This document shows positions 5,702-63,291 of a stretch of DNA of 64,000 nucleotides, piece after piece. The notes beneath the pieces were generated by a model. That model was not told the DNA's origin, ran no database searches, and was given only the letters and a program-made list of their open reading frames with translations. Origin of the DNA: an uncultured Gammaproteobacteria bacterium (lineage in GTDB: Bacteria > Patescibacteriota > Patescibacteriia > Magasanikbacterales > GWA2-37-8); assembly GCA_964634875.1 (NCBI GenBank), contig CAZWKA010000005.1, forward strand, positions 27,167 to 91,166. Reading direction: 5' to 3'. The position numbers and the translations under genes were made by a program. Position 1 is the first letter of the stretch. Every line of letters begins with the position of its first letter.

Positions 5702-5769
5702 GCGATTTTGGCAATTTAGTGCCATCCCCAATCTATATTGGGCATGCGTGCGGACATGTTGCCCTCCGC

Positions 5770-5810
5770 TTTTCTCTTGAGCGCTTACGTATTAAGCTCT
5801 CAAGAGAAAA
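5770..5810 (+). promoter_or_regulatory. long hairpin between island gene 3 and the ECF sigma promoter
   Basis: ttttctcttga gcgcttacgtattaagc tcaagagaaaa forms an 11-bp perfect outer stem plus inner pairing. It may terminate the island transcript or act as an operator for the sigma gene. Confidence 0.4.
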
Positions 5811-5850
5811 ATTGTTTACCCTGATATTTTTTGGTAAACTACAGATTGTT

Positions 5851-6363: not shown

Positions 6364-7109
6364 AATTTTTACTAAAATACAATTTAAGAAAAATGGGTAA
6401 AGCCCTGAAGGCCGAGCCTGCTTTTAAGCAAATGCTGTGGGCGGTGCTCGAAAAATCTTTGGATACTTCCCGTGCGCCGAGAGTTTTGTGGTACCAAGGA
6501 TATGTTTTTCGGGTGGCAACTGCTTTTGTGCTTGCTGCTGTAGTTGTTGGTGCAACAGGCGCCTATGCTTATGCGAGTCCCACAGTTACCGAGGGTACTG
6601 TTTTGTACCCAGTAAAAAAGACACTGGAGAAAGTGGGGGAGAAATTACAGGTCACGCCCGAGAAGAAAGCGGTCTTTTTGTTAAAACAGATCGATCGCCG
6701 CGAGGCTGAGAAAAAAGTTCTGGAGACGAAGCATCAGCCCATCCAAAACATTGAGACAGCGATTGGGAGTACTGAACAAAAGCTCGAGACAGCGAGCGCG
6801 GCACTTAAGGCGACGCCAAAGAAAAATCCGGCTTTACTTAAAAAAGTTGAGAAACGTTTGACGGAGCGCCAAGAACGGCTTGAAAAAGCCAAACGTGAAT
6901 TGGAAAAACGCCTAGAAAAACGGGAAGAACGTGATGAGGATGATAGTGAGGGGAAGGAAGAAAAGAAAAGGGAAGAGAGTGGTGTTATAGAGCAGCTCGG
7001 TGAGAAATTGTTACAAGATAAACCTGTGGAGTCACGCGAGCAGAAAAAAGACTTGGAAGACGTGGTGCAGGAGAGTGTTGAGGAAAGGCTTATGGATCGG
7101 CTCAGATGA
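6360..7109 (+). CDS. putative membrane-spanning anti-sigma factor
   Basis: Its ATG overlaps the sigma TGA (ATGA). Short cytoplasmic N-terminus, one TM helix (VATAFVLAAVVVGATGAYAYA), and a charged coiled-coil ectodomain. Confidence 0.5.
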   Translation: MKFLLKYNLRKMGKALKAEPAFKQMLWAVLEKSLDTSRAPRVLWYQGYVFRVATAFVLAAVVVGATGAYAYASPTVTEGTVLYPVKKTLEKVGEKLQVTPEKKAVFLLKQIDRREAEKKVLETKHQPIQNIETAIGSTEQKLETASAALKATPKKNPALLKKVEKRLTERQERLEKAKRELEKRLEKREERDEDDSEGKEEKKREESGVIEQLGEKLLQDKPVESREQKKDLEDVVQESVEERLMDRLR

Positions 7110-7156: not shown

Positions 7157-7564
7157 CTATCTTTTGACTGCTGCATCAAGTATTTTGTTAACCTCGGCAT
7201 CGGCTTCTTTGTTGCCCGCGCGCAGCGTGTGGCGATAGGTAACTTTTTTGAATTTGGTGGAGAGGTTATAAGCTGCGAGCCATAATTTTTGGAGCGTCGG
7301 TTCTTTGACGCGGTATTCACGACGCATCTGTTTGACAGCAAGCTCGCTGTCGAGAATGCAGTCGACTTCAGTGGCGCCGAGCTCGAGCGCTTTTTCGAGG
7401 GCGAGAATGAGTGCGGTGTATTCGGCAAAGTTGTTGGTCTGTGTGCCTAGGTATTTACCAAAGGCTGCAACGACTTCCTGATGCTCGTTTTTGACCACAA
7501 CTCCAGCCGCCGAAGGTCCAGGGTTTCCACGTGAGCCGCCATCGGTAAAAGTAATAAGTTTCAT
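7157..7564 (-). CDS. rnhA: ribonuclease HI
   Basis: ITFTDGGSRGNPGP... matches the RNase H catalytic fold pattern (DGS.GNPGP, downstream E, D..D). The likely start is M at 7564 (MKLITFTDGG). Confidence 0.8.
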   Translation of the reverse strand: MKLITFTDGGSRGNPGPSAAGVVVKNEHQEVVAAFGKYLGTQTNNFAEYTALILALEKALELGATEVDCILDSELAVKQMRREYRVKEPTLQKLWLAAYNLSTKFKKVTYRHTLRAGNKEADAEVNKILDAAVKR

Positions 7565-7707
7565 AAAAATTAGAGTTGCCATTTCCGTACAGGCTTGCCA
7601 GTACGGTAGACGGGCGGGAAGGTAAGAAGGTAGGTTGCGTGTACCAAACCCCGGATTCCCATCTGCGTGTGAATGACAGTATTAAAAATAAAAAGAGTTT
7701 TTATTTT

Positions 7708-9072
7708 TTAGTATTCCATCCGCCAGAGTCCTTCTTTTCCACTAACAGCTCCAGAAAAATAGAGGAGGCGGTTTTCGCTATCAGCCCCCAGCCCGGTGAG
7801 TTGGCTATTGCTCAAAATATCTTGAGTGACGAGGTAGTAGGGGAATAGGACGGAAATCTTGTTATCGGCACGCAGGGCGACAGTATTATACTCATCAATA
7901 AAAACCGCTTGCCGGAGTGCAATACCCGAGCGGTTGAGGAGGTATGGGTCACTGCCACCTAAAGATGACCATAATTCCCAGGGGTTCCACAGCAGCCACC
8001 AACCGCTGGCAGAAGCGGTAAAATTTTCGGTGGGCACAACAAAAGATCTTGTAGGATTAACGAGCAGCATGCGCGATCCTTGCTCTTCGCTGATAAGGAC
8101 GGTGTTATTCTGGATGAGGCGCAACCGGAGGTTGGTGCGTGTTGTTTCTTCAAGTGATTGGCTGGTAATGGTCGCGAAGGTGTTGATGAAGCCGAGTGTG
8201 TCGCGTTTGATCGTAATTTCGTTGGTGCTCGTAGTAAGATTCATTGTCCACAATTGTCCACCGTTAAAATACCAGTCAAGATACGTGTTGGTCGTGAGTG
8301 TGGTGGTCTCTTCAAGGTTGGTGTCGGCGGCGCGGATTTGGGCCGTGGTACTATAATACAGGGTATGGTCGTTTTCAGAGTCCCAGAGAAATTTGTTAAT
8401 CGGACTTTTTTCGAGTGCTGCAAGATCCCATTTTTTTTCGGGGTTGGCGGTTTTTACCACGATGAGTTGGGTATACGGCGCGAGGGTGGTGTGGATGCTG
8501 AAAAAAACATTATTTTTCGACCAACTTACTGCTGTAGAGGTCGTATAGCTAAGTCCGGTGAGGATAGTTTCTTCCTGGCTGAGTGTATTTTTTAGGACAA
8601 GATCTGGGGTAGTTTTTTTACTGTATATGAGGTAGTTTCCGTCGGGGCTGGTTGAAAGGAGTGTCGCAGCGTCTTCGGTAAGTAGTATCGGTTCGGCTTT
8701 TTTGATGAGTGTAACGTCTTTTATGTAAATAGTCTGTTTGCTTTTAACGGTGATTTCTTGTTGCCAGTCGTAATAGCCGCTTCGCTCAATGCGCAGGTTA
8801 TATGATGAGGGGGCGACATTTTTGAGGCGGACAGGGATTTTTTCGTTAATTTCTTCGCCATTTAAAAATACCGTAGCGTCTTGAGGGAGCACGTCGATGC
8901 TGAGTGCGCCAATTTCTTTGATGAGTCCGCTCTGCCAATCGTAGCGGTAACCAACGGTGTAGAGAACCAAAAGCGGAGTAATGATTAAAAAAAGACCTAA
9001 AAACAGCGCCAGCAATAATTGGCGCCGACGTTTTGTTAGGGTGCTTCCGGGGTATTCCATACAGGAACTCAA
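7708..9072 (-). CDS. membrane-anchored PEGA-domain protein with a large beta-rich C-terminal region
   Basis: N-terminal TM helix, then a PEGA-like unit (DVLPQDATVFLNGEEINEKIPVRLKNVAPSSYNLRIERSGYYDWQQEI), then ~330 aa rich in Ser/Thr/Trp/Tyr. Confidence 0.55.
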   Translation of the reverse strand: MSSCMEYPGSTLTKRRRQLLLALFLGLFLIITPLLVLYTVGYRYDWQSGLIKEIGALSIDVLPQDATVFLNGEEINEKIPVRLKNVAPSSYNLRIERSGYYDWQQEITVKSKQTIYIKDVTLIKKAEPILLTEDAATLLSTSPDGNYLIYSKKTTPDLVLKNTLSQEETILTGLSYTTSTAVSWSKNNVFFSIHTTLAPYTQLIVVKTANPEKKWDLAALEKSPINKFLWDSENDHTLYYSTTAQIRAADTNLEETTTLTTNTYLDWYFNGGQLWTMNLTTSTNEITIKRDTLGFINTFATITSQSLEETTRTNLRLRLIQNNTVLISEEQGSRMLLVNPTRSFVVPTENFTASASGWWLLWNPWELWSSLGGSDPYLLNRSGIALRQAVFIDEYNTVALRADNKISVLFPYYLVTQDILSNSQLTGLGADSENRLLYFSGAVSGKEGLWRMEY

Positions 9073-9208
9073 AAGTCTGGGAGCCTAAAGTTAAAAGTCG
9101 CACGTTGCCTTATAAAATCGGTGCCTGGGGGACTTTTGAGCTTTTGACTTTATAGTCTATTAAAGGTATAGTTAATCATAAGCTAAAAAGACTTTTCAGT
9201 CAAAACCT

Positions 9209-10516
9209 ATGCCTTATTTAGTAATACAGGGCGGTAAAAAATTACACGGCGAAATCGTTAACCAGTCTAACAAGAACTCGGCAATTTCGATTTTGTGTGC
9301 GACTCTTATGGTGCGCGGCAAGACGACTTTGACCGATGTCCCCGAAATTCAAGAGGTGGAGCGGATGGTAGAGCTCCTGACCAGTATTGGGGTGGTTGTT
9401 ACTAGGCCCAAATCCCACACGATCGTGGTCGATGCGAGCCGCGACCTCACCATGGAAACGATTGACCGTAAGATCTGCGAAAAGGTTCGAGCGTCGCTGT
9501 TGTTATGCGGGGCGTTAGCGGCGCGTGAGAAAAGTTATAAATTATACAAATCAGGTGGTTGTCGGCTTGGCGAACGCACGGTCAGGCCGCATTGGTATGC
9601 TCTTAAAAAATTGGGCGTTTCAGTTATTTCTCGCGACGCGTATTATGAAGTCGAGCGCACAAGGCCGCTCGCAGCTGCACGTATTGTTATGTACGAGTCG
9701 GGGGATGCCGCTACGGAAAATACGATCATGGCCGCCGTCCTTGCACCGGGCACAACAGTGATCACAATGGCATCGGCCAATTATATGGTGCAGGATCTGT
9801 GTTATTTTTTGGTGAAGGCCGGGGCAAAAATTAAGGGTATCGGATCGACCACACTCACGATTACCGGTGTCAAGGAATTGCGGCCGGTCAAGGAATATCC
9901 GATCATGCCAGATCCTATTGTGGCCATGACTTTTTTATCAGCGGCAATTGCAACCGGATCGACACTGACGGTCAAAAATTGTCCACTGGAGTTTTTGGAA
10001 TTAGAGCTGTGCAAACTTGAGATAATGGGGCAAAAGTTTAAGGTTGATCACGAACGGACATCTAAGAACGGACATTTTATCATTGTTGACGTTACCGTTG
10101 AACCGAGTAAGCTTACAGCGTTACCCGATAAAATTTACGGGCGTCCATTCCCGGGTTTAAACATCGATAACCTACCGTTGTTCGTACCGATTCTGACCCA
10201 AGCAAGGGGTCGTACGCTCGTTCATGACTGGGCGTATGAGAATCGGGCGATCTACAGTTTGGAGCTTCAGAAGCTGGGTGCGCAAATTACGCTCTTAGAC
10301 CCACACCGGATGTGGGTAGAAGGTCCGGTTAAATTATTGCCGAACGAAGTGATATGTCCGCCCGCCCTTCGCCCTGCAGTGAATGTGCTCATTTGTATGT
10401 TAGCTGCCAAAGGGAAATCTATTTTGCGCAACACTGCTATGATCGACCGGGGCTATGAAAATTTGTATGAAGTATTGAATAAAGCAGGAGCGGATATTAC
10501 TCTTGTGAAAGAATAG
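9209..10516 (+). CDS. murA: UDP-N-acetylglucosamine 1-carboxyvinyltransferase
   Basis: Colinear with MurA: KNSAISILCATLM matches KNAALPIL; the catalytic-Cys loop KSGGCRLGERTVRPH is present; C-terminal IDRGYENLYEVLNKAGADI. Confidence 0.9.
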   Translation: MPYLVIQGGKKLHGEIVNQSNKNSAISILCATLMVRGKTTLTDVPEIQEVERMVELLTSIGVVVTRPKSHTIVVDASRDLTMETIDRKICEKVRASLLLCGALAAREKSYKLYKSGGCRLGERTVRPHWYALKKLGVSVISRDAYYEVERTRPLAAARIVMYESGDAATENTIMAAVLAPGTTVITMASANYMVQDLCYFLVKAGAKIKGIGSTTLTITGVKELRPVKEYPIMPDPIVAMTFLSAAIATGSTLTVKNCPLEFLELELCKLEIMGQKFKVDHERTSKNGHFIIVDVTVEPSKLTALPDKIYGRPFPGLNIDNLPLFVPILTQARGRTLVHDWAYENRAIYSLELQKLGAQITLLDPHRMWVEGPVKLLPNEVICPPALRPAVNVLICMLAAKGKSILRNTAMIDRGYENLYEVLNKAGADITLVKE

Positions 10517-43376: not shown

Positions 43377-45536
43377 ATGCAAAAACTTTATTTTTTACTC
43401 CTTTGCCTCTTGCTTGCGGCGCTCGGTGCCAATAGCATTTGGTGGCAAAGTTGGGCTGTGGGCGCGCTGGGACTTGTTTTTTACTTTTGGTTGACTGCCC
43501 GGCCTGCTGGCAGGTGGTTGCAGCATTTTTTTTGTTATACAGAGAATATCCCGCAGCGTTTTTGGGGGGTGTTTGGAAGTTTTTTATTAGTGAGCAGCTT
43601 GTCCGGAGGATTAGTTGTGACCGGTTTTTTTTCAAGTTCAGCGGTGATCGTTGTTTTAGCTCTTAATGCTTGTTTTTGGCCGTTAGTGTGTCGAATGCTC
43701 CCAATCAAAAAAAATGAAATTGAGTTTTATGCTGCTCAGGAAAAATTTTTTATACATGCAAAATTAAGCTGGGGACTTGGTTTGGCATATGCTGTTTTGG
43801 TGCTGCTAGGGCTGGGACTGCTGCTTAGTTCCCGTTCTTCCGGTGTGATTAGTGCGCCCTGGCAAGTAATTCATCCGATTTTTATCTATGTTTTTGCGGC
43901 AGCAACCTTTATTTTGGGGCTACTTATTTTTTCCCGGCTAGGAAGTCGTTTGCTTTTAGTTTTGTTCATGGTGCATGGGCTCCTCATGCATAGCTACCTG
44001 CCGTTGACGCATACGCTCTTGTATGGCGCAGATAGCTGGCGACACCTCGCGACAGAAGAGCGCTTAGTCAGAGGCGAGGGCACCTTTAAGCCGGAAATTA
44101 GCGACACGGTAAGTGCACCTAACCAAGATATTGATTTAGGGCTCGTTTCGTATAGCCAGTTGTGGGGGATAACAAGTGTTTTAGCTGGTTTAACGGGAGC
44201 GTCGCTTTTGTGGCTCAATCAGTGGCTTGTGCCAATCCTGTGGGCATTGGTACTACCACTTCTCCTCTATGAGTTTGCCTGCACGCTTCGTTGGAGCCGG
44301 GAGCTTACCTTTGGGCTTATTTTCTTAAGTTTTTTGCCGTTTGCCTTAACGAGCGCTGGTTCGTTTACTTTGCCGGTTAGTTTTGGTTTTTTAAGTTGGC
44401 TTTTTTTTATTCTGCTGCTTGTTAAGCGCCTGGTGAAACCTGAGACCGGTCAACGAATTGTGCTCGGATTTTTATGTATTCAGTTATGCGGTGGGTATGC
44501 ACTCTATGCGCTTTTGGCCGTTATCTTTTTTATCGTGGCAGAATTATTTTTGCAGCTTCAGAATAAAGCGCAACGACATTTTAACGGATTTTTTGCGGTA
44601 ATAGTTGGATTGAGTATTGTTGGAATCACTGTGTTCATTCCGCTGTTAGAATATTTTGCCGGCTATAACACGCTTGTGCCAACTACTCTATGGTTTGGCC
44701 AGCTGAAGCAGTTCGTGGGTAATTTTACAGCTGCGTATGTGGCTGCCGGTCCTCGTCCACACGATATTGCCACAGGTAATATTATTTTTAACCAAGTTCC
44801 GTTGGCTAGTTTTGTGACCAACCTTTTTACCTGGACACGCTGGCCGCTGGTTGGGTTTATGCTGGCATGGTGGGGTTTATGTATTCGTGGCTGGTATTAT
44901 TTGTTGCAGCAGCGAGGGGCGGTATCGCATTGGTTCGCTGTGGTGAGTGGTGGAGTGTTCGGTGCTTATGTCCTGGGGCGTTATTTTTTTCAGGGTGAGC
45001 AAGTGCTAACGCGTCGGCTTGAAGTGGTTGTGGCTTTAGCGGCTATTTTTTTAGTGTGCAGCGCAGTTCTTGGTTTGTCGGATCGGTATAAGTTGCGCTA
45101 TAGTAAAAATTGGCTGTTGGTTGTGTTGGGGGTGGTTAGCCTGGCCACGAGTGCTTCGTTCACGCTTGGACCAGATACGCTGACGGTTAGTAATGATCAA
45201 TACCAGGCCATGAAATGGGTACATGAGCGAGTTGGGCAAAATCAGGCGAAGTGTGTGCTTGCCGAGACGTTTCCGCTCCTAGCGCTCGAAGCCCTCAGCC
45301 GTAAGGAAATTATTGGAGGAGGTTTTCCAATCTCGCATGATTTTGAGCAGCCGGAACAGCAAAAGTTGTATACCCGATTAGCCGCCGACCCGCTTGATAA
45401 CGTGGCAGTCGGTGAAGCATTGCAGCTAACGGATGCCGAACACTGTTTCTTGGTTGCGCCGCTGAATGAGGAGGTGGTCGCTGTAGAGCCGGCTGCAAAG
45501 TTTGGCACTGTGGCGGTTTGGGAATACGGTAAATAA
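43377..45536 (+). CDS. large polytopic membrane protein (at least 12 TM) with a ~190-aa C-terminal soluble domain; possible GT-C-type glycosyltransferase
   Basis: Highly hydrophobic N-terminal 520 aa; a loop with YGADSWRH near residue 220. Family not recognised. Preceded by a TATACT -10 and a G-rich tract. Confidence 0.5.
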   Translation: MQKLYFLLLCLLLAALGANSIWWQSWAVGALGLVFYFWLTARPAGRWLQHFFCYTENIPQRFWGVFGSFLLVSSLSGGLVVTGFFSSSAVIVVLALNACFWPLVCRMLPIKKNEIEFYAAQEKFFIHAKLSWGLGLAYAVLVLLGLGLLLSSRSSGVISAPWQVIHPIFIYVFAAATFILGLLIFSRLGSRLLLVLFMVHGLLMHSYLPLTHTLLYGADSWRHLATEERLVRGEGTFKPEISDTVSAPNQDIDLGLVSYSQLWGITSVLAGLTGASLLWLNQWLVPILWALVLPLLLYEFACTLRWSRELTFGLIFLSFLPFALTSAGSFTLPVSFGFLSWLFFILLLVKRLVKPETGQRIVLGFLCIQLCGGYALYALLAVIFFIVAELFLQLQNKAQRHFNGFFAVIVGLSIVGITVFIPLLEYFAGYNTLVPTTLWFGQLKQFVGNFTAAYVAAGPRPHDIATGNIIFNQVPLASFVTNLFTWTRWPLVGFMLAWWGLCIRGWYYLLQQRGAVSHWFAVVSGGVFGAYVLGRYFFQGEQVLTRRLEVVVALAAIFLVCSAVLGLSDRYKLRYSKNWLLVVLGVVSLATSASFTLGPDTLTVSNDQYQAMKWVHERVGQNQAKCVLAETFPLLALEALSRKEIIGGGFPISHDFEQPEQQKLYTRLAADPLDNVAVGEALQLTDAEHCFLVAPLNEEVVAVEPAAKFGTVAVWEYGK

Positions 45537-46151: not shown

Positions 46152-46739
46152 GTGAAAAATATATTTAAAAGTAAAAAGTCAATTTGGGCACTGATTAATG
46201 CAATTGTTTTTATTATTTTGTCTGTTATTTTGTATCTGCGGCAAGGTAGCTTCGAATCGCCTTTGTCGAGTTCACGCTTGGATGTTGTCCAGGACGACAG
46301 CGAGACGCCCGGGCAAAGCGTACAAACGATTGAGACGACTACTACGAGTGTGGCTGTTGTGGTGCGGGTAATTGATGGGGACACTGTCGAACTATCAACG
46401 GGCGCACGCGTCCGGTATATCGGCATTAATACTCCCGAGACTGTTGATCCACGCAAATCGGTTGAATGTTTTGGCAAAGAGTCGTCGGCCTACAACAAGC
46501 AGTTGGTGCTGGGTCAAGAGGTTCGTCTTGAAAAAGATGTTTCCGATACTGACCGTTACCATCGACTGCTCCGGTATGTCTATTTGGAAGACGGGACTTT
46601 TTTGAATTTGAAACTTATTGAAGACGGCTATGCGGATGCGGCTACGTATCCACCAGATACCAAATACAGCGAGCAATTTGTTACAGCTGCCAAGGTCGCG
46701 CGTGAAACCGGCAAAGGGCTCTGGGGGAAATGTAAATAA
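46152..46739 (+). CDS. membrane-anchored staphylococcal-nuclease-like (SNase) thermonuclease
   Basis: N-terminal TM helix; SNase core RVIDGDTVEL...RYIGINTPE...DRYHRLLRYVY. The opposite-strand ORF 46007..46477 is rejected. Confidence 0.8.
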   Translation: MKNIFKSKKSIWALINAIVFIILSVILYLRQGSFESPLSSSRLDVVQDDSETPGQSVQTIETTTTSVAVVVRVIDGDTVELSTGARVRYIGINTPETVDPRKSVECFGKESSAYNKQLVLGQEVRLEKDVSDTDRYHRLLRYVYLEDGTFLNLKLIEDGYADAATYPPDTKYSEQFVTAAKVARETGKGLWGKCK

Positions 46740-46992: not shown

Positions 46993-47021
46993 TTGTTAAT
47001 TTTGGCTAATAGCTGTATACT
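46993..47021 (+). promoter_or_regulatory. promoter TTGTTA, 17 bp, TATACT
   Basis: Ends 10 nt upstream of the ATG at 47032. Its -35 is the TTG alternative start of the over-extended track ORF. Confidence 0.45.
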
Positions 47022-47031
47022 AGGGGTAAAT

Positions 47032-49254
47032 ATGGATAGTATCGACCAAACAGAAAACGAAAAGCTGGCTGCCTCAATTGATCCGACAATCAATTTTTTT
47101 GGCATGACTAATTACCGGAACCAGAACCGGCGTTTTGGTATTAAGATTGATGACCGGCGCCGTCATATGTATTTGGTGGGGAAGACAGGTATGGGTAAAA
47201 CCACCATTCTTGAGAACATGGTTATTAACGATATTTATTCCGGCCACGGTATTGGGCTGGTAGATCCGCATGGCGACTTTGCCGAAAAGGTGCTTAACTT
47301 TGTTCCCGCTAACCGTATTAACGATATTGTCTATTTCAATCCTTCGGATATTGATTATCCGATTGGGTTTAATATTTTGGAATCAATTAACCCCGATTAC
47401 AAACACTTAGTGACCTCGGGTCTGATGGGTGTCTTTAAAAAGATTTGGCCAGACGTCTGGAGTGCCCGTATGGAATATATTTTGAATAATACGATTTTGG
47501 CGCTGTTAGATTTTCCAGGTACGACACTCTTGGGTATTAACCGTCTACTTGCTGATAACGAGTACCGCAAGCGAGTGGTTGCCAACCTAAAAGATCCGGT
47601 GGTCAAAGCTTTTTGGCAAACTGAGTTTGCGGGATACAGCGATAAATATAAGCAAGAAGCCGTTGCGCCTATCCAAAACAAGATTGGTCAATTTTTGTCA
47701 GCATCAATTATCCGCAACATTGTGGCTCAGGTCAAATCGCGTATCGATATCCGCGAGATTATGGACAGCAAGAAAATTTTTATTATGAACTTGTCCAAAG
47801 GGCGCATTGGTGAAGATAACTCGCGCCTCCTGGGCGGTATGCTTATTACCAAGATCCAGCTTTCGGCCATGGAGCGTGTCGATATAATTGAAAAAGACCG
47901 TAAAGATTTCTTTTTGTATGTTGACGAGTTCCAAAACTTTGCCACGGAAAGTTTTGCGAATATTTTGTCCGAAGCCCGTAAGTACCGCCTTGATTTGATT
48001 ATGGCACACCAGTACATGGAACAGCTTGATGAAAAGGTGTTGGCGGCGGTTATTGGTAACGTTGGTACTATGGTTACCTTCCGAGTAGGATCGAGTGATG
48101 CCGAAATTTTGGCTAAAGAATTTATTCCAACATTTGTGGAAGAAGATTTAGTTAACTTGCCCAAGTACCATGTTTATTTAAAACTCATGATTGACGGTGT
48201 TGCGTCGCGACCATTTAGCGCAATGACCTTGCCGCCTATTGGCAGTCCAACCGGAAGCTTGGAGAAAGTAATACGCGTTTCGCGTGAACGCTATGCAGTT
48301 AATCGCAATACCATTGAAGATAAGATTGCAAAATGGAGTGGTATGCTTATAAATGCCGAAGACGTTGAGGCAGAAATGGCGCTTGGTCCCGATGTAGTTA
48401 CTTTTAAAGAAGATTTACCTCCGAAGCCAGCGGTTGTGCCTCCACCTCTGGCTAATGTCTCAACTCCACTTCCTGTCGTACCGCCCGCTCCGGCTAGTGT
48501 CCCAAAACCGGCTGAAAACCGTACTCCAGCTGCCCCAGCATCGCCGGTTCCGCCGAGTTTGGTAAGTGCTCAGCAGCAACGTGCCGTGTATGTTAATCGG
48601 ACTACTCCTTTGCCAGCATCTTCGCCTGCTGTAAGGTCGCCGCAATTACAGCCAATGCGTGAGCCGCAGCGGGATACTTTTCAGCGTCCGCCGCAGCTTC
48701 GTGATCAATCTGCCGCTGGTTTAGGCTCTGCAATGGGTGCAGATGGCGAGCGAAGAAAAAAGCGGCGGCGCAAAAAGAAAGGTTCTGGTTCGGGCTCCTT
48801 GCCCTCACAAGGGGAACAAGTGCTCTTGGTTGATCCGGCACAACAGGGGATATCGCTTAGCGCCATGCTTCCTAAAAACGCGCCGCAGAATGACCGGTCG
48901 CGAGACATTCGTCCGCCTCGGCAGCCGCAGGCACCACAACAGCCAACGAGCATGCCCGAACAACGCCAGGGTGAGCGCCGCGAGCAGTCGGGTGCACCTG
49001 AGCCAATTAATTTGGGTAGCCCGGTACAGCCTCGTGAACAACCGCCAGTACAACCACCTGCGCCTGCTGCACCCCGTCCAGCGCCAGTTGCACCACCGAC
49101 ATCAGCTGTTCCGACGGCTCCGCCACCACCTGCTCCAATGGCACCGCCACCGCAGCCTCGGCCCGAACCGCCACCAACACCGCCAGCTCTTCGTCCCGAA
49201 CAGCAACCAACCCAATTACAGCCGGGGCAAGTCGTAAAGCTTGATATACATTAA
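47032..49254 (+). CDS. orphan VirD4/TraD/TrwB-like (FtsK-HerA superfamily) P-loop ATPase with a ~300-aa Pro/Gln/Ala-rich disordered C-terminal tail
   Basis: Walker A LVGKTGMGKTT and Walker B FFLYVDEFQNF, ~430-aa core. The tail (from ~aa 450) is low-complexity PPAPA-type with an RKKRRRKKK cluster. Confidence 0.65.
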   Translation: MDSIDQTENEKLAASIDPTINFFGMTNYRNQNRRFGIKIDDRRRHMYLVGKTGMGKTTILENMVINDIYSGHGIGLVDPHGDFAEKVLNFVPANRINDIVYFNPSDIDYPIGFNILESINPDYKHLVTSGLMGVFKKIWPDVWSARMEYILNNTILALLDFPGTTLLGINRLLADNEYRKRVVANLKDPVVKAFWQTEFAGYSDKYKQEAVAPIQNKIGQFLSASIIRNIVAQVKSRIDIREIMDSKKIFIMNLSKGRIGEDNSRLLGGMLITKIQLSAMERVDIIEKDRKDFFLYVDEFQNFATESFANILSEARKYRLDLIMAHQYMEQLDEKVLAAVIGNVGTMVTFRVGSSDAEILAKEFIPTFVEEDLVNLPKYHVYLKLMIDGVASRPFSAMTLPPIGSPTGSLEKVIRVSRERYAVNRNTIEDKIAKWSGMLINAEDVEAEMALGPDVVTFKEDLPPKPAVVPPPLANVSTPLPVVPPAPASVPKPAENRTPAAPASPVPPSLVSAQQQRAVYVNRTTPLPASSPAVRSPQLQPMREPQRDTFQRPPQLRDQSAAGLGSAMGADGERRKKRRRKKKGSGSGSLPSQGEQVLLVDPAQQGISLSAMLPKNAPQNDRSRDIRPPRQPQAPQQPTSMPEQRQGERREQSGAPEPINLGSPVQPREQPPVQPPAPAAPRPAPVAPPTSAVPTAPPPPAPMAPPPQPRPEPPPTPPALRPEQQPTQLQPGQVVKLDIH

Positions 49255-49283
49255 TTTTTCTTACCTTTTCTGTTATTCGTGAT

Positions 49284-50534
49284 ATGCGTTATTCACATCT
49301 GTTTGGAAAAACCAGTAAAACAGCTCCGGCTGACGCCGAGAGTCGGAATGCACAACTCTTGACCCAAGGTGGATTTATTTCTAAGCAAATGGCAGGGGTC
49401 TATAATTATTTGCCGCTCGGTTTGAAGGTGCTTAGTAAAATCCAAAATATTATTCGTGAGGAATTGTCTGTGATTGGTGCGCAAGAAATTTTGATGCCGG
49501 CAATGAGTCAGGAAGAAAGTTACGTTACTACTGGCAGGCAGGGGATGGATGTTTTGTTCCACATGCTTGGTCAGGGTGATACACAACTTGTTTTGAACCC
49601 GACGCACGAAGAAGTGGTGACGCCGCTCGTTCAGAAATATACTTTTTCATATCAAGATCTGCCAACTGCGGTGTACCAGATCCAGAATAAATTCCGTAAT
49701 GAAGCGCGGGCGAAGTCTGGGTTGTTGCGTGGTCGGGAGTTTAATATGAAAGACCTGTATTCATTCCATACTTCAAATGAAGATCTGGATGCCTATTATG
49801 AAAAAGTACAGCAGGCTTATCATAAAATTTACCAACGCCTCGGTATTGGAGAGCGAACACTTTTAACCTACGCTTCAGGCGGGGATTTTAGTAAGTATTC
49901 GCACGAGTTCCAAACCCTTTCGGAGATTGGTGAGGACACAGTACATGTGTGTGAAAAGTGCCGAGTAGCTATTAACCAAGAAATTATTGCTGAACAACCA
50001 GGCTGTTCTTTGTGTGGCAACACCGAACTGGTTCCCCAGAAAGCAATTGAAGTAGGGAACATATTTAAATTACACCAGCGTTATTCAAATGCCTTTGGTT
50101 TTACATTTCAAGATAACGCTGGGGAGCAGAAGCCGGTCGAGATGGGGTGCTATGGTATTGGGCCCTCGCGCATTATGGGTACCTTGGTAGAAGTATTTAA
50201 TGATGAAAAGGGAATTGTTTGGCCGGCAGCCGTCGCTCCCTACCAGGTGCATGCGGTGGTGCTCGGTCCGGACGAGGCCGTCTTTGCGGCCGGTGAAACG
50301 TTATACCAAACACTCCTTGAAAAAGGTGTTGAAGTCCTTTTGGACGATCGGCCTGATGTTTCGGCTGGGGCAAAATTTGCCGACGCAGATTTAATTGGTA
50401 TTCCGCTCAGGATTGTTATTTCTAAAAAAACTTTGGCTCAGAATTCATTTGAGCTTAAAAAGCGTTCAGAAAAAGAAGCGCGTTGTATACCGCTCGAAGA
50501 AGTAGCGGGCGCAGTTATTTCCGCTATCGTATAA
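49284..50534 (+). CDS. proS: prolyl-tRNA synthetase (short bacterial type lacking the insertion/editing domain)
   Basis: Its N-terminus aligns with ProRS (TSKTAPADAESRNAQLL...YNYLPLGLKVLSKIQNIIREE), plus class II motifs and a C-terminal anticodon-binding domain. Confidence 0.85.
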   Translation: MRYSHLFGKTSKTAPADAESRNAQLLTQGGFISKQMAGVYNYLPLGLKVLSKIQNIIREELSVIGAQEILMPAMSQEESYVTTGRQGMDVLFHMLGQGDTQLVLNPTHEEVVTPLVQKYTFSYQDLPTAVYQIQNKFRNEARAKSGLLRGREFNMKDLYSFHTSNEDLDAYYEKVQQAYHKIYQRLGIGERTLLTYASGGDFSKYSHEFQTLSEIGEDTVHVCEKCRVAINQEIIAEQPGCSLCGNTELVPQKAIEVGNIFKLHQRYSNAFGFTFQDNAGEQKPVEMGCYGIGPSRIMGTLVEVFNDEKGIVWPAAVAPYQVHAVVLGPDEAVFAAGETLYQTLLEKGVEVLLDDRPDVSAGAKFADADLIGIPLRIVISKKTLAQNSFELKKRSEKEARCIPLEEVAGAVISAIV

Positions 50535-58116: not shown

Positions 58117-58656
58117 ATGGCAGAGTCGATTGTATTTGGTGGTGGGTGTTTTTGGTGCACCGAAGCAGTATTTCAAATGCTTGAAGGTGTTACAGGTGTT
58201 TCGTCTGGGTATACGGGCGGCACAGTACCAAATCCGACATATGAACAGGTCTGTAGTGGGCGTACGGGTCATGCTGAGGCAATTAAGATAGAGTATGATC
58301 CAAGCAAAGTAAAAGTATCAGACCTGCTTGCAGTATTTTTTTCGAGCCATGATCCGACAACTTTAAATCGGCAAGGAAATGATGTGGGTACGCAGTACCG
58401 TTCGGCGATTTTTTATTCGACGCCTGAACAAAAAACAGCTGCTGAAGCTTTTATTGCCGAGCTTGTGGCTGAAAAAACATTTGTTGATCCAATTGTTACG
58501 ACCCTTGAACCGGCAGCAGAATTTTTTCCAGCTGAGCAGTACCATCAAAACTATTACCAGAATAACCAAAGCCAGCCGTATTGCCAGTTTATGATTGATC
58601 CTAAAATTGCTAAGCTCCGGCAGAAATACGCGCATTTACTCAAAAAATCCATGTAA
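58117..58656 (+). CDS. msrA: peptide methionine sulfoxide reductase MsrA
   Basis: MAESIVFGGGCFWCTEAVF is the active-site GCFWC. The true start is M at 58117; the track ORF is extended upstream into murG. Confidence 0.9.
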   Translation: MAESIVFGGGCFWCTEAVFQMLEGVTGVSSGYTGGTVPNPTYEQVCSGRTGHAEAIKIEYDPSKVKVSDLLAVFFSSHDPTTLNRQGNDVGTQYRSAIFYSTPEQKTAAEAFIAELVAEKTFVDPIVTTLEPAAEFFPAEQYHQNYYQNNQSQPYCQFMIDPKIAKLRQKYAHLLKKSM

Positions 58657-58658
58657 GG

Positions 58659-58687
58659 TTGCCTGGTTTTCATTTTTCCGCTATACT
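58659..58687 (+). promoter_or_regulatory. promoter TTGCCT, 17 bp, TATACT
   Basis: Lies between msrA and the ATG at 58740. Confidence 0.4.
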
Positions 58688-58739
58688 AATTAAATGTGTA
58701 TCGGTTCCTGCCGAGATTAATTACGTAACTTTTGTTCCT

Positions 58740-59309
58740 ATGAGTCAAAAAAATATTTATAAGGCCTTTCTTCTTTTTACCCTTATGGTCGTGGCCATGG
58801 GTGCTGGTTGTAGTCCTGCGACTGACCAACAGCCGACTGACACCATGCCCGGTGCAATGACACCTTCAGATTCAAGCCCGTCAGGCGTCATGACACCTGG
58901 GGAAGGAGCGATGGTCGCCCCACCGGCTACTGAGCCGACGCCAACCACGCCAGCACCAACAACTCCGCCGGCAACAGAGCCTGCAGCAGTGACGCCTCCG
59001 GCAAAGAGTTCATTTAAGGATGGTACCTATTCTGCCGATGGCACATATATGTCCCCGGGTGGCCAGGAAGCAATTGGTATAACAATAACCCTTAAGAATG
59101 ATGTTGTAACTGCGGTGAGTGCCGTTTCTAAGACGTCCCGCCCAATGTCACAGCGTTACCAGGGAATGTTTATTGGTGGCTTAGAGGAAGTGGTTGTTGG
59201 TAAGAAAATTACCGAGGTTAGTTTGACGAAAGTTTCCGGTTCTTCATTGACTCCGGCCGGTTTTAATGACGCTGTAGTTAAAATCCAAGCCCAGGCAAAA
59301 AATTCATAG
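58740..59309 (+). CDS. secreted lipoprotein with a putative FMN-binding (NqrC/RnfG-type FMN_bind) domain
   Basis: Signal peptide with lipobox (MGAGCS); a Pro/Thr-rich linker; then a ~100-aa domain with the character of FMN_bind domains (DGTYSADGTY...GITITLKNDVVTAVSAV). The canonical D..SGAT flavinylation motif is not exact here. Confidence 0.45.
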   Translation: MSQKNIYKAFLLFTLMVVAMGAGCSPATDQQPTDTMPGAMTPSDSSPSGVMTPGEGAMVAPPATEPTPTTPAPTTPPATEPAAVTPPAKSSFKDGTYSADGTYMSPGGQEAIGITITLKNDVVTAVSAVSKTSRPMSQRYQGMFIGGLEEVVVGKKITEVSLTKVSGSSLTPAGFNDAVVKIQAQAKNS

Positions 59310-59320
59310 CTATCCGCGGT

Positions 59321-60190
59321 ATGTCTTCGGCAGTTTTTGAAGCAATAGGGACGCACTGGCAAATTGATATTTTTGATCCCTTGGCAGAAGACGTGCAGCA
59401 AAGAATTATTGAGAGCATTAAAGCCCGTATCGATGCGTTCGATCGGGCTTATTCTCGTTTTAGGCCAGATTCATTAGTTACTGAAATGTCGCTTAAAGCA
59501 GGGGAGTACACTTTACCGCCTGATGCGGAGCCGCTCCTCGACCTCTATAAAGAGCTCTACGACCGCCTGGGAGGGTCGTTTACACCCTTGATCGGGCAAA
59601 CGTTAGTTGAGGCCGGGTATGATGCTGTATATTCACTAGAGCCTAAAATACTGAGTCGGTTGCCAACGTGGGAAGAGGCGCTTGATTATCGGTATCCAAA
59701 GCTGGCGCTTAAAAGGCCGGCTGTGCTCGATTTTGGAGCTGCTGGTAAGGGGTACTTAATTGATATTGTTGCTCAAATTCTCTATACTGAAGGTGTCCAG
59801 TCATTTTGTGTGGATGCGGGCGGCGACATGTTTTATGCGCATCCACAAAATAAGCTGCTCGATGTCGGGTTAGAAAATCCGCTCGATACCACCGAAGTAA
59901 TTGGGATTGCGACTATTGCGAATGAAAGTATTTGTGGATCAGCGGGAAATAGACGGACGTGGAAGAATTTTAATCATATTATCAATCCGTTCACGCAGGA
60001 GTCACCAAAAAATATTTTGGCAGTTTGGACTATTGCAGATACCACGCTCCTCGCGGATGCCCTGTCGACCTGTTTATTTTTTGTCCCGGGCAAGACGCTG
60101 ACGCCACATTATGATTTTGAGTACGTAATTTTGTATCAAGATTTTTCGATTGAGAAGTCCCAGTACTTTCCAGCGACATTTTTTAAATAA
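59321..60190 (+). CDS. apbE: FAD:protein FMN transferase ApbE
   Basis: ApbE-family signature blocks (FGAAGKGYLID, VDAGGDM); no signal peptide. Confidence 0.8.
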   Translation: MSSAVFEAIGTHWQIDIFDPLAEDVQQRIIESIKARIDAFDRAYSRFRPDSLVTEMSLKAGEYTLPPDAEPLLDLYKELYDRLGGSFTPLIGQTLVEAGYDAVYSLEPKILSRLPTWEEALDYRYPKLALKRPAVLDFGAAGKGYLIDIVAQILYTEGVQSFCVDAGGDMFYAHPQNKLLDVGLENPLDTTEVIGIATIANESICGSAGNRRTWKNFNHIINPFTQESPKNILAVWTIADTTLLADALSTCLFFVPGKTLTPHYDFEYVILYQDFSIEKSQYFPATFFK

Positions 60191-60210
60191 ATTTTATTTG
60201 TATAGCAGCG

Positions 60211-60290
60211 TAGGCAGAGTAAGTACTAAGCAGAGTAAGTAATTTTTCGCAACTTAATCTGCCTACTCTGCGTAATCTGCCTAGTACTAT
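60211..60290. repeat. repeat/dyad cluster: direct repeat GCAGAGTAAGTA twice (16-bp register) and TAATCTGCCT twice (18-bp register) in inverted orientation
   Basis: Checked by eye. agtactaagcag (60222-60233) is a one-mismatch reverse complement of ctgcctagtact (60279-60290). Lies between apbE and the oxidoreductase gene. Confidence 0.45.
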
Positions 60291-60293
60291 TTT

Positions 60294-61814
60294 ATGCACT
60301 TTATCGATAATCTGCTCAATAAATTTACGATGTATCGCGTGGTATTGTACGGACTAACGCTTCTCGCGGCCTGCGCATTTATTCTCAGCGCCTTCAAACT
60401 AATTTTTTTTACACCTCTTGAACTCGCTGCTTCGCTCGTAACACTCCTCGTTACCTGTGGTTTGGTTAATTGGGTTTTTGCTAAATTATTTAAAATTCCT
60501 GCCAACGTTGAGTCAGTTTTTATTACGGCGTGGATTTTGTTTTTGGTGTTAGCGCCAAGCACTGCTCGGGCAGATATCTTATGGATAGCTGCAGCCGGTG
60601 CGATTGCCATGGCTTCCAAATATGTTTTAGTTTTTCGTAAACATCATATTTTTAATCCGGCAGCTATCGGCGTGCTTATTCCGGGGCTTTTGGGTAGTGG
60701 CCTCGCTATCTGGTGGGTGGCGACACCGCTTATGTTCCCGCTTGTCCTCGTGGTTGGGTTTTTAGTGGTTCGAAAAGTACATCACTTTAATTCAGTTATC
60801 GCCTTTTTAGCAGTTAGTCTTGGCTATCTGATGCTGACCGGAATTATGGCTGACCGAAGCGTGTGGCCGCTTTTTAAAGAACTGATGCTTTCGTGGCCGA
60901 TTATCTTTTTTGCTTCAGTTATGTTTACCGAACCTCTGACAATGCCTGCTCGGAAGCATCTGCAGATTGTGTACGGAGCGTTGATCGGTTTCTTATTTTC
61001 CATCCAGTTTCATGTGGGGCCGGTGTATTCTTCGCCAGAACTCGCCCTCGTGCTCGGTAATATTTTTTCGTTCATCGTGAGTCCTAAGCAGCGTCTTATT
61101 TTGAAGTTTAAAGAAAAGACGCAGCTGGCGGCGAATATGTTTGAATTTATTTTTACTGCTCCTCAGCGGCTACAGTTTTTGCCAGGGCAATATTCGGAAT
61201 GGACCCTCTTTCATGAAAAACCAGACACCCGTGGGAATCGGCGTTACTTTACGATTGCCTCTGCACCCGAAAGTAACGATATTGCGATTGGTATTCGTTT
61301 ATCTGACCCGTCGAGTAGTTTTAAACAGCAGCTGGCGAATTTAAAAACAGGGGATGCTATTATGGCTTCTTCAGCAGCCGGGGATTTTGTGCTACCAAAA
61401 AATAAAGAGAAAAAAATAGTCTTCATTGCCGGTGGCATTGGGGTAACACCGTTTGCCAGCATGCTTCGTCATCTTTTAGAAACTAAAGAAAAACGTACAG
61501 CAACTATGCTGTACTCAGTGCGTACGTGTGCGGATATTGCTTATCAATCGGTTTTTGACCAGGCCGAAAAGGAGCTGGGTATTAAAACTCATTATATTGT
61601 CACTGATGTTTCGTGTTTACCACCAGGTTGGACAACACCAACGGGCTATATCTCTGACCCAACAATTCGCCAGCTCGTGCCAGATTTTAAAGAACGCCTC
61701 TTTTATATTTCTGGGCCATTTGTAATGGTCGATGCAACGGAAAAGTTACTCAAAAAAATGGGTGTACCAAGCAGTCAGATTAAGACCGATTTCTTCCCAG
61801 GGTTTGCCGGGTAA
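60294..61814 (+). CDS. polytopic membrane domain fused to a C-terminal FNR-like FAD/NAD(P)H-binding oxidoreductase domain
   Basis: N-terminal ~270 aa with at least 7 TM helices and a duplicated RK.HHFN(P/S) motif (RKHHIFNPAA; RKVHHFNSV), possibly RnfD/NqrB-like. C-terminal FNR motifs RRYFTIAS (FAD) and GGIGVTPF (NAD). No Fe-S cysteine cluster seen. Confidence 0.7.
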   Translation: MHFIDNLLNKFTMYRVVLYGLTLLAACAFILSAFKLIFFTPLELAASLVTLLVTCGLVNWVFAKLFKIPANVESVFITAWILFLVLAPSTARADILWIAAAGAIAMASKYVLVFRKHHIFNPAAIGVLIPGLLGSGLAIWWVATPLMFPLVLVVGFLVVRKVHHFNSVIAFLAVSLGYLMLTGIMADRSVWPLFKELMLSWPIIFFASVMFTEPLTMPARKHLQIVYGALIGFLFSIQFHVGPVYSSPELALVLGNIFSFIVSPKQRLILKFKEKTQLAANMFEFIFTAPQRLQFLPGQYSEWTLFHEKPDTRGNRRYFTIASAPESNDIAIGIRLSDPSSSFKQQLANLKTGDAIMASSAAGDFVLPKNKEKKIVFIAGGIGVTPFASMLRHLLETKEKRTATMLYSVRTCADIAYQSVFDQAEKELGIKTHYIVTDVSCLPPGWTTPTGYISDPTIRQLVPDFKERLFYISGPFVMVDATEKLLKKMGVPSSQIKTDFFPGFAG

Positions 61815-61868: not shown

Positions 61869-62005
61869 AAGGCTGCTCTCGCTCAATGTTATAGCGTGTA
61901 AAACACTGAGCGAGGTCGAGCAGTCTTGGGAGTTTTTTGCAGCGAGAGGGAGTGGCCAACTTGGTTTTCGGCCGCTCCCTCGTTGTATGAGGGGGTGAAA
62001 TTTGT

Positions 62006-63112
62006 CTAGGCTGGGGGTCCGAGCTCAGCCGTCTCCACGCGCGAGCTGAGGAACGCGCCCAGGTGTCGCCGGAGCGTTGTGATACCCGGCTTGATCAGCT
62101 CGGCATAGTCAACGAGGGCGCTGCCGATCATCGCATACTCCTTGGTCATTCCCGAGAGCTGATAGGTGGAACGCCCAAGCTTGAGCGGGTACTCGATCTG
62201 CTTCTTGTTGGTCGAGTGCCGAGCGACGTTCGGCTTGAAGCCTAGGTTGTTTCTCAAAAAGCCGAGCCCGCGGCTCGGGCGCTGCGAGATGTCATGCTCG
62301 TTGTACAGCGAGAGCTTGGCCGAGGTGAGCTCGCCATCTTTCAGAACCGTCTCAATGGCGTAGCGCTCTGTATAGACGATCTCCGGCAGAAGCGAAGGGT
62401 TGTTCATGAGCTCGTGGAACTCGGGCGGCAGAACAGCACGAACGCAATTCTCATAGAGATCGAGGTCCAGCAGCTCAGGACCGTCGAGCGGCTCTTCACC
62501 CCGCCAGATCGGCCGACCGAGCGGGATGCCGGTCAGGCGCTTGATCGTCTTCAGGATCGACTTGCGCTCCTCGTCGAGCAGGTGGCTCACGTTCGCCGTG
62601 AAGAAGGTGCGACCACGCTCTACCCTTCGCTTGAGCGCACCCCACTGCTGGATGATCCAGAGCGCGCCGTGGTCCGGCGAGATCGGGCGACCGTCATCGA
62701 AGGTCCAGCTGCAGGTTACGTAGTTTTCGGACTTTCTCTGCTTTAGGCTGAACCCGACGCGAAAACTCTTCGGGCCGATACCTACCTGATTCATGCCGCT
62801 GTAGCTCAGTTCCACCGGACCGTAGGTGACCGTGTCGCGCTGCCCCGAGAACGCGGAGTTTCCGACCCCCTCTCGGATAGTGTAAGGAGCGAGGTGATCA
62901 CCCGGCCGATACTCAAGGAGCCAGCTGGTCGGCAGGAGTGCGCTCGAAGGCTCCACCCACACGTGATCGCCCATGTTGTGGATCATCAGGTGCCGAGAGC
63001 CTGTCTCGTGGTGGTCCTCCGGCCGCAGCTGCCACTCACCCCGTATACGTAGGAGCGGCGTTGGGCTCGGGAACCGGACCTGGTTTGCGAAAAAATAGTT
63101 CTGACCATTCAT
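62006..63112 (-). CDS. GC-rich orphan hypothetical protein, ~368 aa
   Basis: Visibly GC-rich ORF with GC at third codon positions in an AT-richer genome. RBS GAGGAAAAG upstream of the ATG at 63112. The track ORF extends to 63211. The plus-strand ORFs inside it are artefacts. Confidence 0.55.
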   Translation of the reverse strand: MNGQNYFFANQVRFPSPTPLLRIRGEWQLRPEDHHETGSRHLMIHNMGDHVWVEPSSALLPTSWLLEYRPGDHLAPYTIREGVGNSAFSGQRDTVTYGPVELSYSGMNQVGIGPKSFRVGFSLKQRKSENYVTCSWTFDDGRPISPDHGALWIIQQWGALKRRVERGRTFFTANVSHLLDEERKSILKTIKRLTGIPLGRPIWRGEEPLDGPELLDLDLYENCVRAVLPPEFHELMNNPSLLPEIVYTERYAIETVLKDGELTSAKLSLYNEHDISQRPSRGLGFLRNNLGFKPNVARHSTNKKQIEYPLKLGRSTYQLSGMTKEYAMIGSALVDYAELIKPGITTLRRHLGAFLSSRVETAELGPPA

Positions 63113-63291
63113 GAACTTTTCCTCTGCTCTCCCTTTCCATTCAAGGCTCCGGTCAGGGCACTGCCTGACATGCGGAGGAGTCTTGGTAACTCTCAGGAGT
63201 AGCTCGCGCATAACAAATTTATTGTGCTCGAGCTCATCCGGAAAACTCTTAAGAGTATACTTTTTAGATCATTTTGTCAATATACTGGGGT

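Follow-up and report, generated by a model that had tools for sequence, protein, structure and literature searches.

Gene content of the locus

The window analysed here, a 64,000-nt stretch of contig CAZWKA010000005.1, carries at positions 58117–61814 four consecutive open reading frames (ORFs) on the plus strand, which encode the methionine sulfoxide reductase MsrA, a lipoprotein, a flavin transferase of the ApbE family, and a fusion of a membrane domain with an FNR-type oxidoreductase module. The ORF list of the window confirmed this layout, and all four genes stand where a preliminary description, drawn from the letters of the DNA alone, had placed them. In our reading, to which we assign a probability of roughly 0.75, the last three genes (58740–61814) form a member of the Nqr/Rnf-like, flavinylation-associated transmembrane electron-transfer systems that works along the electron path proposed below. 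The features of this three-gene module are as follows.

58740–59309, plus strand: lipoprotein of 189 aa with a predicted NqrC/RnfG-like FMN_bind domain (lipobox, positional homologues, hhalign)
59226–59246, plus strand: predicted flavinylation motif T163-K-V-S-G-S-S169, aligning with D-x-x-S-G-A-T of classical FMN_bind
59321–60190, plus strand: ApbE-family FAD:protein FMN transferase of 289 aa, "long" leaderless type (PF02424, E = 6.2e-35)
60294–61097, plus strand: predicted RnfD/NqrB-like membrane domain of the fusion protein, residues 1–268, about ten helices (profile hits, AlphaFold2 model, Foldseek)
61098–61814, plus strand: NqrF-like FAD/NAD(P)H (FNR-type) cytoplasmic domain of the fusion protein, residues about 269–506 (PF00175, PF00970)

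The fusion protein

In the C-terminal half of the fusion protein (60294–61814), Pfam recognised NAD_binding_1 (PF00175, E = 1e-16) and FAD_binding_6 (PF00970, E = 0.013), as the preliminary description had anticipated, and no 2Fe-2S ferredoxin domain was found by Pfam or in the AlphaFold2 model. The third family anticipated for this protein, NQR2_RnfD_RnfE (PF03116), is absent at E ≤ 0.1; the N-terminal 268 residues have no Pfam match at all, and the NCBIfam match of the N-terminal part to NqrB is weak (E = 0.0034). The nearest relatives of the FNR half in the PDB are the FAD domains of NqrF (E ~1e-13 with the single sequence, 7e-19 with the family profile), and Foldseek retrieved FNR-family structures, including NqrF, with E down to 2.8e-17. 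The best 120 of the thousands of relatives found by a database search share 46–72% identity with the fusion protein and are nearly all about 505 residues long (one has 435); those with a named source are mostly from Patescibacteria. Many of them carry precomputed matches to both PF03116 and PF00175, including full-length proteins at 46–52% identity.

Since the FNR half swamped the whole-protein PDB sequence, PDB profile, and Foldseek searches, the membrane domain was cut out, and then searched, modelled with AlphaFold2, and compared by Foldseek separately. The sole PDB hit of its profile is RnfD of Azotobacter vinelandii (8ahx_D, E = 9e-4). The alignment of the profile with E. coli RsxD falls into two blocks, residues 21–140 on RsxD 20–142 and residues 157–258 on RsxD 234–334. 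The top 15 Foldseek PDB matches of the AlphaFold2 model (predicted local distance difference test, pLDDT, 86; predicted template-modelling score, pTM, 0.85) are all either RnfD (8rbq_D, 8ahx_D, 9eri_D, 7zc6_D) or NqrB of V. cholerae, with probability 1.00 and query TM-scores (TMq) of 0.55–0.72. Urea transporters, which are known structural relatives of NqrB, rank after them. Judged by its predicted structure, the membrane domain is of the RnfD/NqrB fold, so that the earlier description of the third protein as an RnfD/NqrB-like membrane domain joined to an FNR module is corroborated by profile, alignment, and model. Its count of 7–8 transmembrane helices is not, the model having about ten membrane helices or half-helices.

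Residues invariant in the membrane domain include H118, F120, N121, P122, W140, W141, K161, and the motif M210-x-T-E-P-x-T-x-P218, whose invariant acidic residue E213 aligns with the T-D-P motif of RsxD. A segment of about 90 residues of RsxD (143–233), containing D-G-I-S-Q-A-T187 with the flavinylated Thr187, has no counterpart in the fusion family profile, and neither [ST]G[AS][ST] nor D-x-x-x-x-[AS]-[ST] occurs in any of 33 homologues. On these two grounds flavinylation of the membrane domain was ruled out, and with it the suggestion that ApbE modifies this domain in the manner of NqrB/RnfD. A ferric-reductase or NOX fold was also ruled out: H118 is the only invariant histidine, PF01794 is absent, and there is no ferric reductase domain (FRD) fold among the 50 Foldseek matches listed. 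Only the FNR half gives structural matches to SpNOX.

A duplicated RK.HHFN motif in the membrane domain had been taken as a sign of an internal repeat. Both strings are present, at residues 115–122 and 160–167. The first keeps H118-F120-N121-P122 across homologues and aligns with F-N-P-A of RnfD, while the second keeps only R160-K161 and reads R-K-I-R-R-F in the family consensus, its HHFN being unique to the window sequence among the compared homologues. With the second copy not conserved and no profile similarity between the two halves of the domain (hhalign probability 1.3%), the internal repeat was rejected.

The start of the fusion gene at 60294 is right, as the opening 14 residues (I-D-x-x-L-N-x-x-T-M-Y) do not vary among 33 homologues. 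Protein P0001 (494 aa), the NCBI entry for this gene, begins at Met13 and loses this invariant N-terminal segment (60294–60329); its annotated start is probably wrong.

Conservation of the gene triplet

When one genome per species was scanned, at least 477 loci encoding the fusion protein were recovered, and 80 of them were kept for neighbourhood comparison (designated by L numbers); neighbouring genes were counted within 6 kb of the fusion gene. The co-occurrence of the three genes across related genomes, which the preliminary description had made a test of its proposal, is evident in this set. Upstream sequence of 1.5 kb or more was available in 73 loci. In 62 of these, the fusion gene is preceded on its own strand by both an FMN_bind gene and apbE, nearly always directly adjacent and in that order; apbE is present in 68 of all 80 loci. 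According to the record titles, which can be unreliable for metagenome bins, the loci span Patescibacteria, Chloroflexota (Dictyobacter, Ktedonospora), Actinobacteria (Agreia, Arthrobacter, Herbiconiux), Alphaproteobacteria (Mesorhizobium, Kaistia), and Spirochaetota. A search with the membrane domain alone returned 408 cluster representatives (50% identity, E ≤ 1e-30), most of them about 500 residues long.

Some neighbours recur without being universal. About one-quarter of the related loci have an OmpR-type response regulator and a histidine kinase beside the module, on either side and in either orientation (e.g., L080 at 7561–9305, L001, L026, L037, L043, L048, L049, L058, L062, L073, L077, and others), which hints at signal-dependent control of the module. 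In the window, neither an OmpR-type response regulator nor a histidine kinase adjoins it. Other such neighbours are MacAB-like HlyD/ABC genes and, in four of the 80 loci (L048, L049, L058, L059), genes for the ferrous-iron transporter VIT1 (PF01988, E = 4.5e-68 in L049). Three of these four loci are from Mesorhizobium/Phyllobacterium, and the fourth, L059, is labelled Chloroflexia.

The lipoprotein and its predicted acceptor motif

The lipoprotein gene starts at the ATG at 58740; 58659, 58737, and the TTG upstream were discarded as starts. The protein consists of a signal peptide with a lipobox (…VVAMGAG-C24) ending at Cys24 (58740–58811), a Pro/Thr-rich linker of about 65 residues (about 58812–59012), and a C-terminal domain of about 98 residues (about 59013–59306). 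This domain has no direct Pfam or NCBIfam match (no PF04205 at E ≤ 0.1), and its identity was reached via the positional homologues in related loci and profile-profile comparison with hhalign. PF04205 (FMN_bind) is matched by 35 of 41 proteins encoded at the same position in related loci, and the window subtype aligns with the classical FMN_bind subtype over the whole domain (probability 97.4%, E = 1.3e-11), V-S-G-S-S of the window falling onto V-S-G-A-T. These results support a divergent FMN_bind domain with an acceptor serine, predicted to be Ser169 (codon 59244–59246). The FMN_bind domain of the preliminary description is thus recovered at the level of profiles, and not as a direct PF04205 match; likewise, the [S/T]GA[S/T]-like site for which it had proposed to look is there as S-G-S-S, with Ser in place of Ala.

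Among the 120 closest lipoprotein homologues, S-G-S-S occurs in 114, and 86 have Thr where Asp is usual. All but four of the 120 (116) lack a precomputed Pfam domain; therefore, Pfam-based surveys would miss the sub-lineage to which the window protein belongs. The FMN_bind partners in related loci nearly always have an N-terminal hydrophobic segment, with a lipobox in 7, and since the N-terminal flank is the more positively charged one in 64 of 77, an N-in, C-out orientation is expected for them.

Extra FMN_bind-like genes were observed in a few of the loci. L010 (480–2293) encodes two paralogues of 300 aa whose SGGS/SAGS motifs are degenerate, L008 (52–941) has a partial second copy, and in L026 (4955–5955) two FMN_bind genes stand in tandem, without an ApbE within 6 kb.

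A leaderless ApbE paired with its presumed substrate

The PF02424 match bears out the identification of the second gene of the module as apbE. What had been overlooked is that the enzyme is leaderless. The gene opens 12 nt past the lipoprotein stop codon, and the protein begins directly at the domain start (MSSAVFEAIGTHW), with no signal peptide. The module ApbEs of 65 related loci, detected with phmmer, also start at the conserved domain start (MGMPITVEI or FEAIGTxWxI), their genes usually starting no more than a few nucleotides from the stop codon upstream. No hydrophobic leader is seen in the first 50 residues of these 65 proteins (maximal 15-residue Kyte-Doolittle mean 1.88), nor within residues 1–45 of the 120 closest homologues of the window ApbE (mean ≤1.28). 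Being leaderless, the enzyme is presumably cytoplasmic, and its mismatch with an exported substrate is consistent across five phyla.

Two subtypes of module ApbE can be distinguished, each with acceptor motifs of its own. Short ApbEs (~247 aa) are paired with [STA]-G-A-[TS] in all 46 loci with a clear call, and long ones (~290 aa, the window type) are paired with x-G-S-S, SSSS, or x-G-A-S in the window and 18 related loci, the motif in these cases being always Ser-final. Such co-variation looks like an enzyme co-evolving with its substrate. The leaderless module ApbE, the sub-lineage with the variant motif, and the domain invisible to Pfam are mentioned neither in the sections cited here of the two papers on this class (PMC8238504, PMC10979944) nor in the results of targeted literature searches.

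Relation to known systems

The triplet belongs to the "NQR/RNF-like system" that Méheust et al. (2021) published, and the class itself is not new. The novelty earlier attributed to the fusion and to the module is therefore withdrawn (PMC8238504, PMC10979944), whereas its underlying logic, NAD(P)H feeding a covalent extracytoplasmic flavin, is the same as that proposed in the sections of these papers on which all our statements about them are based. According to Méheust et al. (eLife 2021; PMC8238504), the class combines an NqrB/RnfD-like membrane domain with an NqrF-like NAD-binding domain in flavinylation gene clusters, and an NQR/RNF-like protein is defined operationally by PF03116 and PF00175 on one polypeptide. 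The authors reported 127 such clusters, mainly in Actinobacteria and the candidate phyla radiation, and found extracytosolic flavinylation to be strikingly under-represented in the latter; six clusters contained VIT1, for which a link to iron assimilation was suggested. Huang et al. (2024; PMC10979944) presented an AlphaFold-multimer model of the two-subunit complex of Ktedonobacter racemifer, noted that the NqrB/RnfD site of flavinylation lacks conservation within the NQR/RNF-like subunit, and suggested that the covalent FMN of the NqrC/RnfG-like protein reaches a non-covalent flavin site in the membrane subunit.

With this system, described mainly from the candidate phyla radiation, Actinobacteria, and Chloroflexota, the window shares the NqrB/RnfD-NqrF fusion, the adjacent membrane-anchored NqrC/RnfG-like FMN_bind protein and apbE, and the missing flavinylated Thr. 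It differs in having T-x-V-S-G-S-S instead of [S/T]GA[S/T], a longer ApbE, and proteins left unmatched by PF03116 and PF04205. The family is also larger than the 127 published clusters, with at least 477 species-level loci and 408 clusters at 50% identity, and it is far commoner in Patescibacteria than the published number suggests. The earlier undercount likely arose from a pipeline that demanded Pfam hits and predicted signal peptides.

The Na+-NQR (NqrA-F) and RNF (RnfABCDGE) complexes share with the window module the NqrB/RnfD fold (TMq ≤0.72), the NqrF-like FNR half, an NqrC/RnfG-like lipoprotein, and an accompanying ApbE. In contrast to them, the window module comprises only two polypeptides, has no Fe-S domains, and lacks NqrA/D/E and RnfA/B/C/E; its membrane domain, shorter by about 90 residues, has no site for covalent FMN, and the predicted electron flow would be one-way outward instead of semicircular, with no quinone or ferredoxin site evident. 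Pfam scanning of the window covered ORFs of at least 180 aa. Neither among these ORFs nor among the conserved neighbours in the 80 loci did we find the canonical subunits NqrA/D/E, 2Fe-2S NqrF, or RnfA/B/C/E, and the same holds for type-II NADH dehydrogenase, EetA/B, demethylmenaquinone genes, PplA, and FmnB.

The latter genes characterise Listeria-type extracellular electron transfer (Ndh2, EetA/B, DmkA/B, PplA, FmnA/FmnB), which the module resembles in having a surface lipoprotein with a predicted ApbE-type covalent FMN fed by cytoplasmic NADH, the presumed role of both being the disposal of reducing equivalents outside the cell. In the window, where Ndh2, demethylmenaquinone genes, and EetA/B are missing, a flavin-binding membrane step of the RnfD fold would stand in place of the quinone pool. 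Moreover, FmnB of Listeria is an exported lipoprotein that needs FAD export, whereas the window ApbE is leaderless.

MsrQ-like or NOX-type FRD::FNR fusions, such as Streptococcus pneumoniae NOX (8qt6), likewise join a polytopic membrane domain to a C-terminal FAD/NAD(P)H module, and those of Actinobacteria also accompany apbE and FMN_bind genes (PMC8238504, sections as above). The window membrane domain, however, is not a six-helix di-haem FRD and has no bis-His haem sites, only H118 being invariant. Finally, the ApbE of the Klebsiella pneumoniae NADH:fumarate reductase is similar in having no signal peptide and in being encoded beside its substrate (PMC12052999). That substrate is a soluble cytoplasmic enzyme, in contrast to the only candidate substrate in the window, which has a lipoprotein signal peptide, and to the candidate substrates of module ApbEs in general, which carry either such a peptide or an N-in/C-out membrane anchor.

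Proposed electron path and alternative explanations

The domain identities, the fold, the gene order and its conservation, the lack of a flavinylation site in the membrane domain, the leaderless ApbE, and the exported acceptor protein were all computed here. The cofactors, the direction of electron flow, the covalent flavinylation of Ser169, and the terminal acceptor we infer, and the path would run as follows. NAD(P)H would reduce the FAD of the cytoplasmic NqrF-like domain. Since there is no 2Fe-2S domain, electrons would then pass directly to a non-covalent flavin in the RnfD/NqrB-fold membrane domain, for which the cytoplasm-facing invariant cluster of H118, F120, N121, P122, K161, T212, E213, P214, T216, and P218 is the candidate site. 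From there they would be received by FMN in phosphoester linkage to Ser169 of the tethered, outward-facing lipoprotein, and would leave it for an external acceptor encoded outside the locus. The adjacent ApbE would put the FMN on Ser169. As a cytoplasmic enzyme it would have to do so before or during export, or else another ApbE encoded elsewhere would be responsible; this is the weakest part of the model.

Several observations weigh against the assignment to an Nqr/Rnf-like electron-transfer system. The class itself has been deduced by computation only, the cited sections of PMC8238504 and PMC10979944 reporting no experiment on any member, and cofactor content is not readable from sequence. 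No acceptor or partner gene is conserved in the neighbourhoods of the 80 related loci. The window proteins miss the published Pfam definition directly, with neither PF03116 nor PF04205 at E ≤ 0.1. The motif T-K-V-S-G-S-S169 fails the published ApbE-substrate motif, D-x-x-[S/T]-G-A-[S/T] with the acceptor Ser/Thr in the last position (PMC12052999): Asp is replaced by Thr and Ala by Ser, while the Gly, the preceding Ser, and the acceptor Ser are kept. Lastly, with a leaderless, presumably cytoplasmic ApbE and an exported acceptor domain, the flavinylation step has no obvious place.

Of the alternatives, the one that takes this last mismatch at face value supposes that the window's sub-lineage has no covalent flavoprotein, ApbE providing the membrane domain with FMN or riboflavin as a cytoplasmic FAD pyrophosphatase or enzyme of flavin trafficking, and the lipoprotein binding flavin non-covalently or not at all. 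The leaderless ApbE in all loci examined, beside an exported lipoprotein, and the motif without canonical Asp and Ala would both fit. We nevertheless regard it as quite unlikely, given that the acceptor Ser/Thr position is essentially invariant and that the motif co-varies with the ApbE subtype, suggesting an enzyme-substrate relationship. In the K. pneumoniae fumarate reductase test case, moreover, Asp to Ala had only minor effects and Ala to Val still allowed about 50% flavinylation (PMC12052999). A different question is what the machine is for. It might be an assimilatory or extracellular ferric reductase, reducing Fe(III) or its chelates for uptake, an explanation that specifies the acceptor and leaves the machine the same. 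VIT1 genes beside the module in four of the 80 loci and the six such clusters in the cited sections of PMC8238504 point this way. However, the association is rare, three of the four loci coming from Mesorhizobium/Phyllobacterium, and neither VIT1 nor any other iron-uptake gene lies near the window module, for which we consider this role unlikely.

The two-subunit complex could also be a minimal redox-driven Na+/H+ pump that conserves energy without a respiratory chain by means of the NqrB/RnfD-type channel fold. The model retains the full RnfD/NqrB fold, related to urea channels, E213 is invariant and aligns with T-D-P of RsxD, and there are no respiratory genes among the Pfam-scanned window ORFs. 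Yet subunits A/E of Rnf (D/E of Nqr), which hold the ion-coupling site in current structural models, are missing, and we find such a pump very unlikely. Most remote of all is the four-gene unit of the preliminary description, read such that the module would supply reducing power to MsrA for methionine-sulfoxide repair. The msrA gene does lie upstream of the lipoprotein gene on the same strand, separated by 83 nt, and the same arrangement recurs on the independent contig L082. Against this, msrA is found near the fusion gene in only three of the 80 related loci, at differing positions and sometimes on the opposite strand, and a promoter-like site lies within the 83-nt spacer. MsrA is also cytoplasmic, its N-terminus (MAESIVFGGGCFWC) carrying no export signal, and would use thioredoxin. 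Its membership in the operon was ruled out on the neighbourhood counts, and msrA is no longer considered a fourth component.

Returning to the Nqr/Rnf-like electron-transfer system, one tentative and rather doubtful idea would reconcile its leaderless enzyme with its exported substrate: a cytoplasmic ApbE, co-evolved with T-x-V-S-G-S-S, might flavinylate the C-terminal FMN_bind part before or during Sec export, or ApbE might exit the cell non-classically, in either case by an undescribed route. FAD export would then be unnecessary, and genome-reduced Patescibacteria would have a self-contained two-protein exporter of NAD(P)H electrons, which might be the only redox device in their membrane and could conceivably be coupled to ions. 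Whatever the route, the leaderless ApbE facing an exported substrate poses a concrete puzzle about the assembly of covalent flavoproteins. An SGSS motif that has an ApbE subtype of its own would extend the known specificity of flavin transferases, which bears on ApbE-tag protein engineering. For ultra-small, respiration-poor Patescibacteria, the NQR/RNF-like module may be a main means of disposing of NAD(P)H electrons at the cell surface.

Flanking gene and non-coding elements

Besides the module, the following features were identified at the locus.

58117–58656, plus strand: msrA, cytoplasmic peptide-methionine (S)-S-oxide reductase (Pfam PMSR, PF01625, E = 1.9e-67)
58659–58687, plus strand: sigma-70-like promoter match TTGCCT-17-TATACT (consensus scan, 9/12 matches)
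60205–60271, no strand assigned: composite inverted repeat in the 103-nt spacer between apbE and the fusion gene (60191–60293), with arms 60205–60224 and 60252–60271
61973–61997, plus strand: terminator-like hairpin some 160 nt past the stop codon of the fusion gene, with an 11-pair stem including 6 G-C pairs

The promoter-like match in the spacer between msrA and the lipoprotein gene may be the module's own promoter; the consensus scan gave 12 sites in the region against 7.8 expected by chance, and is weak evidence for this one. The arms of the inverted repeat are 90% complementary and are made of two copies of TAGGCAGAGTAAGTA and three of TAATCTGCCTA, both short direct repeats, and the repeat unit occurs nowhere else in the window. 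As RNA, the element has a folding energy of -29.4 kcal/mol (z = -2.35). Since apbE and the fusion gene abut or overlap in most related loci, unlike in the window, the repeat looks like a locus-specific insertion, and it may act as a regulatory hairpin or an operator. The hairpin at 61973–61997, which has a weak T-tail, is only suggestive as an operon end.

The minus strand directly downstream of the module carries a 401-aa ORF (62006–63211) with no Pfam or NCBIfam match. Its third-position GC content is 0.77, as against 0.42–0.44 in the module genes, and it may be foreign DNA.

Genomic context

The rest of the window contains housekeeping genes: dnaJ, murA, era, pyrG, recJ, lepA, murJ, mraW, mraY, dnaB, dnaG, rpoD, and murG. 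The Pfam-scanned ORFs of at least 180 aa include no respiratory, quinone, or cytochrome genes, and this gene content agrees with a Patescibacteria-like host. At gathering threshold, Rfam detected no RNA genes in the window.

A GC-rich island at 2359–5701 (55–58%, compared with ~46% elsewhere) contains ORFs without Pfam matches, two of which, 3066–4307 on the plus strand and 3078–4298 on the minus strand, are antiparallel and overlap almost fully. It has no sequence similarity to the GC-rich ORF at 62006–63211. At its edge (5719–7109), a gene for a sigma factor of the extracytoplasmic function (ECF) type (Sigma70_r2/r4) is followed by one for a DUF5667 protein, and the two may be a sigma/anti-sigma pair. 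Elsewhere, a 753-aa protein (46993–49254) resembles coupling proteins of type IV secretion (TrwB/TraG-D); near it are a 719-aa ORF without a Pfam match (43377–45536) and a gene for a secreted-nuclease homologue (46152–46739).

GC skew is positive in all 2-kb bins of the window but one (-0.001 at 48001–50000), so that the cumulative skew rises almost monotonically, and most genes are on the plus strand. Because of this near-uniform skew and gene orientation, the whole window appears to lie on the leading strand of one replichore.

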